DNA of 38,946 bases, taken from NCBI RefSeq assembly GCF_003334255.1, contig NZ_QOWU01000055.1; one strand, written 5' to 3'. Position numbers and translations under genes: made by a program. Position 1 is the first letter of the stretch. Each line of letters begins with the position of its first letter. This document shows positions 13,065-37,067 of the stretch, piece by piece. Source of the stretch: Escherichia coli. Lineage in GTDB: Bacteria; Pseudomonadota; Gammaproteobacteria; Enterobacterales; Enterobacteriaceae. The notes under the pieces are model-generated. The model made no database searches. It was not told the DNA's origin and saw nothing but the letters and a program-made list of their open reading frames with translations.

Positions 13065-13084
13065 AACTGTTTTTTTATCCAGTA
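13065..13084. promoter_or_regulatory. LexA (SOS) box of uvrB overlapping a perfect TATAAT -10 hexamer
   Basis: AACTGTTTTTTTATCCAGTA with CTG-N10-CAG spacing (13067-13082); TATAAT at 13083-13088; 70 bp upstream of the uvrB start. Confidence 0.85.
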
Positions 13085-22131: not shown

Positions 22132-23372
22132 CAGGGTTTTACCCCCGTGTTTTCAGTTTCTACCCGATCCTGCGTTTCCATTGTCGGTTGTGCGGGCGGA
22201 TCAACCTGCGCCAGACGTGGCGTGTGTGCCGGAAGCCAGCCAACCAGCGCCGGGAAGTGGCGTAAAAAGTGGAACGCCAGTACGCTTTTGGTCAGGTTCC
22301 ACCAGGTGCGTTTGGGCAGCATGGTTTCATCCACCTGCTGACAATCTGCGGCAATAATGCCGTTCAGATTATCGCGCAGCGTCTGGTTAAAATGACGATC
22401 GTGGATGATGACATTTGCTTCGAGATTCAGTGACAAACTGAGCGGATCGAGATTACTGGACCCTACTGTCGCCCAGTGATCGTCCATCAATGCCACTTTG
22501 CCGTGGAGCGGGCGGCGGCGGTACTCAAAAACCTGAACGCCGCCTTTAACCAGATAGTTATACAGCAAGCGCGCACCGACTCTGACAATCGGCATATCCG
22601 GTTCGCCCTGAATGATCAGTTTGATCCGCACCCCGCGCCGTGCCGCTTTACGCAAGGCGTGTAAAAATCGATAGCCGGGGAAGAAGTAGGCGTTGGCGAT
22701 AATCACTTCCCGCCGCGCCTGAGTGAGCATTTTCAAATAATGGCGTTCAATATCATCGCGATGTTCTTCGTTATCGCGCCAGACCAGCAATACCTGCGCT
22801 TCTCCCGGCTGGCGGTTCTCTTCCGCTTTGTGATGACGTCGCCACCAGCGTCGTGCCGCGCTCTGTCCAGGCAGGTTTTCCAGCTCAAACTGGAGAATAT
22901 CTTCGACAATCGGCCCTTCAAGGCGTACCGCGTAATCCTGTTTAGCCTCTGGACCGTAGCTGGACATATGCTCGGCGGAGTAATTCAGCCCGCCAATAAA
23001 GGCTATACGCGCGTCGATCACCACAATTTTGCGATGCATCCGGCGAAACACATTGGTGCGCATACCAAAAAGGCGAGGGCGGGGATCGTAGTAGCGGAAC
23101 ACTACGCCAGCTGCCGTCAGTTCATTGACAAACTCATCGCTGAGATCCGGCGAACCGTAGCCATCCAGCAAGACTTCCGCTTTAACCCCGCGTTGCGCTG
23201 CTGCCAGTAGTGCCGCATGCAGTTGTTTGCCGACGTCATCCTCAAACCAGATAAACGTTTCAAGAATGATGCGTTCTTGTGCCTCGCCAATCGCCTTAAA
23301 CACCGCGGGATAATATTGCTCGCCGTTTTCCAGCAACTGGATCTTATTGCCTTCGCGCCAGCTACATTTCAT
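22131..23372 (-). CDS. clsB: Cardiolipin synthase B (phospholipase-D superfamily, two HKD motifs)
   Basis: 413-aa ORF with HRKIVVID and [12 protein letters not shown] motifs. Confidence 0.9.
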
Positions 23373-31896: not shown

Positions 31897-31921
31897 CAGG
31901 CTGATGAACAAACGCAAAACT

Positions 31922-32020
<99 letters not shown>

Positions 32021-32100
32021 TTTCACAACAAGCACTTGTCAGCAATTTGAGAACACGGGAAAAAATTTATCTGTTTTACCGCCCATAAGCCACCGAGACG

Positions 32101-32583
32101 TTACTTCTCTATAGCCAATTGTTCGCGCAACTCCATTAAAAGGTAGCCCAGTCGATTCTTGCCCTTACCATGACCACCGTCTCCCCAGTAAGCATCGTTT
32201 TCCGTATGCTCAACCAGTTTTGCGGGCGCGGTTGCCAGCAAGAGCGCACGCAGTTCTGCATGCTGTTCGAATTTAGCGCGAAGTGCTTTTCGCATCACCT
32301 GTTCTTTGACCGACTCCCAGTTTTTACGCAGAGGCTTAGAACGATCGCGCCCCATGCGTGCGGCGACCATAGGGGAAGAAACCCGACGGATCTCTTCGCG
32401 GTATTTTTCATCAAGGAATTTTTGTGCCTGAAAATAGTGTTCTGAGGTGGGCCAGGTTTTCCCGTCAACCTTGATGGGCCAGGCGGCAAAGTTAGAAAAA
32501 TCACCGTAGTCATCGCTGGTGCTGTAGAAATTTATGATGGTGTCTTGCATGACGTGTTGGATCCTTTGTGCTCGAACGGGCAT
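32101..32583 (-). CDS. ybiA: NADAR/DUF1768-family N-glycosidase (riboflavin-intermediate hydrolase)
   Basis: 160-aa ORF; divergent from dinG. Confidence 0.85.
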   Translation of the reverse strand: MPVRAQRIQHVMQDTIINFYSTSDDYGDFSNFAAWPIKVDGKTWPTSEHYFQAQKFLDEKYREEIRRVSSPMVAARMGRDRSKPLRKNWESVKEQVMRKALRAKFEQHAELRALLLATAPAKLVEHTENDAYWGDGGHGKGKNRLGYLLMELREQLAIEK

Positions 32584-32668
32584 TAAACCGCATTATGTTG
32601 GTGGTTATTGCGAGCCGCTTTCCAGAAACAGAAAAACCATTACCCCTGAAAACCGAAAAATGCCACAA

Positions 32669-32688
32669 TATTGGCTGTTTATACAGTA
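32669..32688. promoter_or_regulatory. Non-canonical LexA box of dinG (TTG-N10-CAG)
   Basis: TATTGGCTGTTTATACAGTA, 15 bp upstream of the dinG ATG; the left half-site is TTG rather than CTG. Confidence 0.7.
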
Positions 32689-32702
32689 TTTCAGGTTTTC
32701 TC

Positions 32703-34853
32703 ATGGCATTAACCGCCGCGCTTAAAGCGCAAATTGCCGCCTGGTATAAGGCGCTTCAGGAACAGATCCCCGACTTTATTCCCCGTGCGCCGCAGCGGCA
32801 GATGATTGCGGACGTCGCCAAAACGCTGGCCGGAGAAGAAGGGCGACATCTGGCGATTGAAGCCCCCACCGGCGTTGGGAAAACGCTCTCTTATTTGATT
32901 CCCGGCATCGCCATTGCCCGCGAAGAGCAAAAAACGCTGGTGGTGAGTACCGCCAACGTGGCATTGCAGGATCAGATTTACAGCAAAGATTTACCGCTGC
33001 TGAAAAAGATCATTCCCGATCTTAAATTCACTGCCGCTTTTGGGCGTGGGCGCTACGTTTGTCCGCGTAATCTGACGGCGCTCGCCAGTACTGAACCCAC
33101 GCAACAGGATCTGCTGGCGTTTCTTGACGACGAACTGACGCCGAACAATCAGGAAGAGCAAAAACGTTGTGCGAAGCTGAAGGGCGATCTCGATACTTAT
33201 AAATGGGATGGTCTGCGCGATCATACTGATATCGCTATAGATGACGATCTCTGGCGTCGTTTAAGTACCGACAAAGCCAGCTGCCTCAACCGCAATTGTT
33301 ACTACTATCGTGAATGCCCGTTTTTTGTCGCTCGTCGGGAGATTCAGGAAGCGGAAGTGGTGGTGGCAAACCATGCGCTGGTGATGGCGGCGATGGAAAG
33401 CGAAGCGGTATTGCCTGACCCGAAAAATTTACTGCTGGTGCTGGACGAAGGCCATCACCTGCCGGATGTGGCGCGGGATGCGCTTGAGATGAGCGCCGAA
33501 ATCACCGCGCCGTGGTATCGGCTACAGCTGGACTTGTTCACGAAACTGGTCGCTACCTGCATGGAGCAGTTTCGCCCGAAGACCATCCCACCGCTGGCGA
33601 TCCCTGAACGTTTGAATGCGCATTGTGAAGAGTTGTATGAGCTTATCGCCTCGTTAAACAACATTCTCAATCTCTACATGCCTGCCGGGCAGGAGGCAGA
33701 GCACCGTTTTGCGATGGGCGAACTGCCAGATGAAGTGCTGGAGATCTGCCAGCGGCTGGCAAAACTCACCGAGATGCTGCGTGGCCTGGCGGAGTTATTT
33801 CTTAACGATTTAAGTGAGAAAACCGGCAGCCATGACATTGTACGTCTGCATCGGTTGATTTTGCAGATGAACCGCGCGTTGGGGATGTTCGAGGCGCAAA
33901 GCAAACTCTGGCGGCTGGCTTCGCTGGCGCAATCTTCCGGTGCACCGGTGACCAAATGGGCGACGCGGGAAGAGCGCGAAGGGCAGCTACACCTCTGGTT
34001 TCACTGCGTGGGAATACGTGTCAGCGATCAGCTGGAAAGGCTGCTGTGGCGCAGTATTCCGCACATTATTGTCACCTCCGCAACCTTGCGTTCGCTGAAC
34101 AGTTTTTCGCGTTTGCAGGAGATGAGTGGTCTGAAAGAGAAAGCGGGCGACCGTTTTGTGGCGCTGGATTCCCCCTTTAACCACTGCGAACAGGGCAAAA
34201 TTGTTATTCCCCGGATGCGCGTTGAGCCTTCCATCGACAACGAAGAGCAGCATATTGCCGAAATGGCGGCCTTTTTCCGTAAGCAGGTGGAGAGCAAAAA
34301 ACATCTCGGTATGTTGGTACTGTTTGCCAGCGGACGGGCGATGCAGCGCTTTCTCGACTATGTGACGGATTTACGTCTGATGTTGCTGGTTCAGGGCGAT
34401 CAGCCGCGTTACCGTTTAGTTGAACTGCACCGCAAACGCGTCGCCAACGGTGAGCGCAGCGTGCTGGTGGGCTTACAGTCATTTGCCGAAGGGCTTGATT
34501 TGAAAGGTGATCTGCTCAGCCAGGTGCATATCCACAAAATCGCTTTTCCGCCCATCGACAGCCCGGTGGTGATCACCGAAGGGGAATGGCTGAAAAGCCT
34601 CAACCGCTATCCGTTTGAGGTGCAAAGCCTGCCGAGCGCCTCGTTTAACCTGATTCAGCAGGTTGGGCGACTGATTCGAAGCCACGGTTGCTGGGGCGAA
34701 GTGGTTATCTACGACAAACGCTTGCTGACCAAAAATTATGGCAAGCGACTACTGGATGCATTACCGGTATTTCCGATAGAGCAACCGGAAGTCCCTGAAG
34801 GTATAGTTAAAAAGAAAGAAAAAACGAAATCCCCACGCCGTCGGCGGCGTTAA
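32703..34853 (+). CDS. dinG: ATP-dependent DNA helicase DinG (Fe-S, XPD-like)
   Basis: ORF track frame 32568..34853; start MALTAALKAQIAAWYKAL giving 716 aa; Walker A (APTGVGKT) and DEGH box. Confidence 0.95.
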   Translation: MALTAALKAQIAAWYKALQEQIPDFIPRAPQRQMIADVAKTLAGEEGRHLAIEAPTGVGKTLSYLIPGIAIAREEQKTLVVSTANVALQDQIYSKDLPLLKKIIPDLKFTAAFGRGRYVCPRNLTALASTEPTQQDLLAFLDDELTPNNQEEQKRCAKLKGDLDTYKWDGLRDHTDIAIDDDLWRRLSTDKASCLNRNCYYYRECPFFVARREIQEAEVVVANHALVMAAMESEAVLPDPKNLLLVLDEGHHLPDVARDALEMSAEITAPWYRLQLDLFTKLVATCMEQFRPKTIPPLAIPERLNAHCEELYELIASLNNILNLYMPAGQEAEHRFAMGELPDEVLEICQRLAKLTEMLRGLAELFLNDLSEKTGSHDIVRLHRLILQMNRALGMFEAQSKLWRLASLAQSSGAPVTKWATREEREGQLHLWFHCVGIRVSDQLERLLWRSIPHIIVTSATLRSLNSFSRLQEMSGLKEKAGDRFVALDSPFNHCEQGKIVIPRMRVEPSIDNEEQHIAEMAAFFRKQVESKKHLGMLVLFASGRAMQRFLDYVTDLRLMLLVQGDQPRYRLVELHRKRVANGERSVLVGLQSFAEGLDLKGDLLSQVHIHKIAFPPIDSPVVITEGEWLKSLNRYPFEVQSLPSASFNLIQQVGRLIRSHGCWGEVVIYDKRLLTKNYGKRLLDALPVFPIEQPEVPEGIVKKKEKTKSPRRRRR

Positions 34854-34880
34854 TGATGTGAGTCAGGTAAGGAGTCGTAA

Positions 34881-35843
<963 letters not shown>

Positions 35844-35849
35844 TTCTTT

Positions 35850-35926
<77 letters not shown>

Positions 35927-35971
35927 ACGCCCGGCGTGCAGCATAAAAATACAACAAACACATAACATAAA

Positions 35972-37067
<1,096 letters not shown>

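Follow-up and report, generated by a model that had tools for sequence, protein, structure and literature searches.

LexA binding to the dinG operator of Escherichia coli, the induction of dinG by DNA damage, its early response at low dose, and its co-transcription with ybiB have all been demonstrated by published experiment. PMC8265657 quotes the operator as an experimentally characterized SOS box with TTG in place of CTG (Lewis & Mount 1992), and it treats the site as asymmetric and bound by LexA over 20 bp. The same 20-mer is also quoted verbatim in PMC3009722, and PMC6590174 counts dinG among the LexA-regulated genes with a known SOS box. Culyba et al. 2018 (PMC5999292) determined LexA off-rates (koff) and Kd on 28 operators native to E. 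coli, and they also moved the dinG operator into the recA promoter. According to that paper, LexA acts as a dimer with each monomer on one half-site, the CTG/CAG trimers are virtually invariant, and changes in these trimers severely weaken LexA binding. The same paper classifies dinG as an “early” promoter whose peak time is not shifted by the UV dose and whose ED50 is low, with maximal activity reached below 10 J/m2. The induction of E. coli dinG by ciprofloxacin is modest, with a log2 fold change of ~1-1.7 (~2- to 3-fold; PMC11002266). In Salmonella, dinG has a single box 14 nt from the start codon, with a heterology index of 10.08, and nalidixic acid induces the gene 10.6-fold. Finally, one transcriptome study argues that operator strength sets the amplitude of induction and not its timing.

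We compared this published operator with the corresponding site in a stretch of 38,946 nucleotides (hereafter, the window). The window is E. coli chromosomal DNA: positions 32400-33000 are 100% identical to many complete E. coli genomes, in which they are annotated as ybiA and dinG. By direct reading, the plus strand at 32669-32688 is TATTGGCTGTTTATACAGTA, i.e., TA-TTG-N10-CAG-TA. This 20-mer is identical in sequence, gene, and position to the published dinG SOS box (PMC8265657, PMC3009722), and nothing in the window's copy differs from it. Against the LexA consensus TACTG(TA)5CAGTA (PMC6590174), 15/20 positions agree, with mismatches at positions 3, 6, 7, 9, and 11. The left trimer, TTG (32671-32673), departs from the canonical CTG-N10-CAG pattern and the right trimer, CAG, is intact; in the left half-site, positions 1, 2, 4, 5, 8, and 10 still agree with the consensus. 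The end of the box (32688) and the dinG ATG (32703) are separated by 14 nt. As such, the dinG box is a non-canonical (asymmetric) LexA operator, as the literature already states, and we identify 32669-32688 with high confidence as the asymmetric operator of the E. coli dinG-ybiB operon that was described in 1992. The coordinates of this and the neighboring features are collected in Table 1.

Table 1. Features of the dinG-ybiB region, in window coordinates, and the species loci without ybiB
Feature	Position	Strand	Remarks
ybiA CDS	32101-32583	minus	Between rhlE and the dinG promoter
Putative extended -10, TGcCACAAT	32661..32669	+	Proposed from conservation; ends on box position 1
LexA operator (SOS box) of dinG	32669..32688	+	TATTGGCTGTTTATACAGTA; sequence, matrix score, literature, conservation
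Left, non-consensus half-site	32669..32678	+	TATTGGCTGT; position 3 (32671) is T, consensus C
Right half-site	32679..32688	+	TTATACAGTA; last nine bases, TATACAGTA, are exact consensus
Predicted TSS	32676..32677	+	From standard -10 spacing, ~7 nt past the hexamer; inside the left half-site
Shine-Dalgarno-like CAGG	32692..32695	+	Short 5' leader; columns 91-99% conserved (n=81); putative function
dinG CDS	32703..34853	+	716 aa, ATP-dependent DNA helicase DinG; RefSeq of identical K-12 DNA
ybiB CDS	34881..35843	+	320 aa, TrpD2-family DNA-binding protein; RefSeq; 27 nt past the dinG stop
Loci without ybiB within 2 kb			L007, L008, L015, L039, L043, L048, L049, L051, L053, L055, L056, L062, L064, L065, L071, L077, L078

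Two other readings of the same DNA were rejected. Reading the site in another register, as the internal CTG-N6-CAG (32675-32686), gives a spacing that is wrong for LexA, and a sigma-54 reading of TGGC... fails, by inspection, on the GG/GC spacing. In addition, Rfam places no RNA family over the dinG operator site.

Since the bare trimer spacing proved uninformative (CTG-N10-CAG occurs 11 times in the window, with 8.2 occurrences expected), we built a weight matrix of the full site. Its training set was 15 E. coli LexA boxes from the literature (Table 4, PMC3009722), with dinG and uvrB excluded, and the matrix was symmetrized. With this matrix, the dinG box scores 14.9 bits, the second-highest score in the window behind the uvrB box at 13065-13084 (23.7 bits), which reads AACTGTTTTTTTATCCAGTA, exactly as published for uvrB. 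In dinucleotide-preserving shuffles, scores of 14.9 bits or more are expected 0.05 times per 39-kb window, i.e., the dinG box agrees with the LexA matrix well above chance. Its score nonetheless lies near the bottom of the accepted E. coli boxes, where only polB is lower (14.0 bits) and the remaining listed sites fall between 17 and 29 bits. Exchanging T for C at position 3 in silico raises the score of the dinG box from 14.9 to 20.8 bits. The matrix scan of the ybiA-dinG intergenic region reveals no second LexA-like box, the runner-up 20-mer reaching only -4.7 bits. Altogether, the sequence features given in the preliminary description are confirmed: TTG-N10-CAG is present at 32669-32688, no other SOS-box-like element lies upstream of dinG, and the uvrB box does lie at 13065-13084.

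The matrix gives two lower-ranking matches elsewhere in the window; shuffled windows are expected to contain about one score of 10 bits or more each. The third-highest score (13.2 bits) belongs to TACTGGATGCATTACCGGTA at 34750-34769, a CTG-N10-CGG site inside the 3' end of dinG and 111 nt upstream of the ybiB ATG. We considered it as a separate operator of ybiB and rejected it, as 0.18 such scores are expected per shuffled window and the third codon positions vary freely among the 81 sequences described below; we judge it to be a chance match. The fourth-highest score (11.6 bits) is that of AACCAGATAGTTATACAGCA at 22548-22567, where the right half-site is good and the left carries CCA instead of CTG.

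Within E. coli, the operator region hardly varies. The 60-mer at 32650-32709 is the same, base for base, in 5,403 of 5,422 complete genomes, and variants with C, G, or A at box position 3 gave no full-length exact match among 5,410 E. coli genomes, so that T at 32671 is fixed in the species. For a broader comparison, a scan with the DinG protein, taking one genome per species, supplied 80 Enterobacteriaceae loci from ~20 genera, which together with the window give an upstream alignment of 81 sequences. All DinG proteins listed by the protein search were 87-100% identical to the query, and the sample is confined to the Enterobacteriaceae.

The box is present in 80/80 of these species, always 13-16 nt 5' of the ATG, and 17 of its 20 columns reach at least 98% conservation over the 81 sequences. 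Variation is almost absent from columns 32661-32688, and the DNA 5' of ~32660 cannot be aligned between genera. In contrast to the box, the third codon (synonymous) positions of dinG are near saturation across the sample. Conservation is highest at 32678-32687 (at least 99% of the 81 sequences, with 32681 varying in one), and the last base of the box, 32688, is A in 70 sequences and G in 11. At box position 3 (32671), 76 sequences have G, four have T (all Escherichia), one has A (E. whittamii), and none has C. The dinG operators of Citrobacter, Klebsiella, Enterobacter, Kluyvera, Raoultella, Kosakonia, and other Enterobacteriaceae are nearly identical to that of E. coli and lie at the same position, with the form TA-N-TGGCTGTTTATACAGTA; the difference is in the defective trimer, which is GTG in the other Enterobacteriaceae and TTG in Escherichia. 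As judged from the aligned sequences, TTG is the form that a family-wide GTG-N10-CAG operator takes in Escherichia, and the asymmetry is older than the divergence of the sampled genera.

The invariant block extends beyond the box on its 5' side. There, TG (32661-32662) is invariant, 32663 is the only variable column, and CACAAT (32664-32669) is conserved in at least 95% of the 81 sequences. This arrangement, TG and one base followed by a hexamer whose second base is A and whose sixth is T, is that of an extended -10 element, and TGnCACAAT looks like the extended -10 sigma-70 promoter of dinG. The box would then adjoin this putative promoter on one side and stand 14 nt from the dinG ATG on the other. 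If the -10 assignment is right, LexA would cover promoter positions -7 to ~+12. No -35 element is conserved across genera in the 81-sequence upstream alignment, and a simple -35/-10 consensus scan of 32400-32800 returned no promoter; a terminator scan of the same interval was also empty. In Citrobacter, TTGCGA stands 17 bp upstream of CACAAT.

A separate observation concerns the DNA immediately 5' of this element in other genera. In Citrobacter amalonaticus (L005, 1880-1960), a hairpin with a T-run, GCCCGGCC-GAAA-GGTCGGGC-TTTTCTTTTT, stands directly against the dinG promoter, and the T-run of this rhlE terminator-like hairpin runs into TTGCGA. The hairpin and T-run found 5' of dinG in genera without ybiA are apparently the terminator of rhlE.

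Combining these observations with the published properties of LexA, we propose that the repressor dimer sits on the 20-bp site with one monomer on the perfect half, TATACAGTA, and the other on the defective half, where the C of CTG is replaced by T. The site would start at the last base of the putative -10 hexamer and span the predicted transcription start site (TSS), and because of this overlap, bound LexA would block RNA polymerase. Since one half-site is poor, LexA would leave fast and repression would be incomplete; the fast exit of LexA would, in turn, result in basal expression, full derepression early and at low dose, and a modest induction ratio. The second gene, ybiB, is expressed from the dinG transcript. 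In this scheme, the positions of the promoter and the TSS, and hence the steric mechanism of repression, are predictions from the aligned sequences. The 1992 paper on the dinG operator reportedly included tests of half-site mutants.

The functional part of the preliminary description, which had predicted weaker LexA binding, leaky or early induction, and co-transcription of ybiB with dinG, is supported by published data. PMC5999292 supports the first two predictions through the effect of the trimers and through the early, low-ED50 behavior of the promoter. The third is borne out by tiling arrays, which detect a single UV-induced transcript, “ybiB, dinG”, with the dinG box upstream (PMC3009722), and by PMC10123104, in which ybiB is part of the LexA-regulated dinG operon. 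Weak binding at the dinG box is thus supported by secondary statements and by the measured behavior of the promoter. This interpretation is correct, but it restates knowledge from 1992-2018 about a site that is already known in detail.

What the alignment brings into view is that position 3 is never C. One explanation, which would complement the main one given above, is that promoter and operator overlap and constrain each other. With CACAAT as the putative -12 to -7, box position 3 corresponds to promoter position -5, two bases past the hexamer. According to PMC10911233, which reviews Haugen 2006, region 1.2 of sigma-70 contacts the non-template strand at -5, and at five promoters the half-life of the open complex is 10- to 50-fold longer with -5G than with -5C. 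If C is the worst base for this contact, then a consensus operator would, hypothetically, weaken the promoter: C at this position would strengthen the operator and cripple a promoter that relies on an extended -10 without a conserved -35. The weak half-site would accordingly be a by-product of the overlap rather than a setting selected for leakiness.

This explanation is consistent with the conserved TG-n-CACAAT directly 5' of the box, in which only “n” varies and which is accompanied by no conserved -35, and with the bases seen at 32671 (G in 76/81, T or A in Escherichia, C in neither this sample nor any of the E. coli genomes searched, n=5,410). However, the -10 assignment and the TSS on which it depends are themselves predicted, and the base in E. 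coli is T, not G, the optimum. Only two substitutions are visible, G to T and then T to A, both within Escherichia, so that the lack of C carries little statistical weight. Furthermore, a recent model cited in PMC10911233 questions whether there is a single optimal discriminator, and selected weakness and an overlap constraint are not mutually exclusive. Overall, we consider the overlap constraint possible, though short of probable. We are similarly tentative about the wider proposal that the defective trimer, D-T-G in 81/81 Enterobacteriaceae sequences, is an ancient, family-wide feature that may be maintained by the -5 overlap; such a trade-off would make dinG-ybiB a leaky, low-threshold SOS operon.

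A second alternative is that the conserved block is mainly core promoter and leader and that LexA makes true contact with the right half-site only; the left half would be kept for reasons of RNA polymerase or start-site function, with the LexA dimer anchored on one half-site. Its appeal is that the left half (TGGCTG) is as invariant as the right despite being far from the consensus, and that it falls where the discriminator and start region are predicted, the right half being perfect consensus. Against this, LexA binds the asymmetric operator as a 20-bp site according to PMC8265657, its dimer engages one half-site per monomer according to PMC5999292, and six positions of the left half keep the consensus base. 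We therefore regard this alternative as improbable and retain the asymmetric 20-bp operator as the preferred reading. The last alternative, that the box is a chance resemblance without regulatory role and dinG is controlled from elsewhere, could appeal to the strict CTG-N10-CAG rule being broken and to the little information that bare trimer spacing carries, but it is a negligible prospect, already effectively refuted by the invariance of the box over ~20 genera and by LexA binding shown experimentally in the literature, along with a full 20-mer score expected only 0.05 times per window at the sole intergenic candidate.

The RefSeq gene order in the identical DNA of K-12 is ybiA (minus strand, start at 32583), dinG, ybiB, and then hcxB. 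The dinG gene of the window is 100% identical to that of many E. coli genomes, and Pfam helicase domains are recorded for its homologues. A terminator and promoter consensus scan of 34600-36100 detected nothing in or around the 27-nt gap between dinG and ybiB. Among the 80 species, ybiB lies directly 3' of dinG in 62, and it was not found within 2 kb 3' of dinG in ~17 (listed in Table 1), mostly from the Enterobacter cloacae complex with some Citrobacter. All of these ~17 retain the box, which implies that some lineages can do without the second operon gene.

On the 5' side, the region containing ybiA (31908-32603) behaves, in the genomes compared, like an accessory insert of ~700 bp that separates rhlE from the dinG promoter. 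In line with this behavior, ybiA was not found within 2 kb 5' of dinG in 78/80 species loci; E. whittamii (L001) and an E. coli-labeled species representative (L002) lack it, and coverage of 32400-33000 reaches at least 80% in only 3,424 of 5,422 E. coli genomes. The table of Kim 2012 gives orthologues of rhlE, dinG, and ybiB in Klebsiella pneumoniae and none of ybiA. A 2024 paper (PMC11125620) places ybiA inside the LexA-controlled operon, whereas we find the gene on the opposite strand to dinG and not conserved with the operator. The gap between the ends of rhlE and ybiA also contains, at 31943-31985 on the minus strand, a match to the Rfam small RNA ES036 (CssrF) of 43.3 bits (gathering score 37.6).

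A different observation relates to the annotated start of DinG. An open reading frame of 761 aa (32568-34853) opens with a GTG at 32568 and reads across the promoter and the operator into dinG, and a protein cluster of this N-terminally extended form (P0002, 761 aa) has 11,659 member sequences. The long form looks like a start-codon miscall, with RefSeq and conservation both favoring the ATG at 32703.

With respect to its wider meaning, the dinG operator is a textbook case of an SOS box that departs from the canonical pattern, and its recovery here matters little beyond confirmation; weak, fast-exchanging LexA binding at dinG has already been used to explain the early, low-dose SOS response. 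For models of operator tuning, the additions are that TTG is the Escherichia form of a family-wide GTG, that the position is never C in the sequences compared, and that it may have a role at -5. If confirmed, the latter would provide a concrete case of promoter architecture capping the operator strength that can evolve.

Compared with the well-described boxes of uvrB, recA, and sulA, the dinG box follows the same general plan: all are 20-bp imperfect palindromes with an AT-rich spacer, and in all of them a LexA dimer represses a DNA-damage gene. The canonical boxes overlie a promoter, as the dinG box would with its putative -10 element. The difference lies in the trimers, since canonical boxes such as those of uvrB, recA, and sulA keep both CTG and CAG, whereas the dinG box has TTG on one side. 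A difference in behavior is described as well: in PMC5999292, the sulA and umuD promoters are late and have a high threshold, whereas the dinG promoter is early and has a low threshold.
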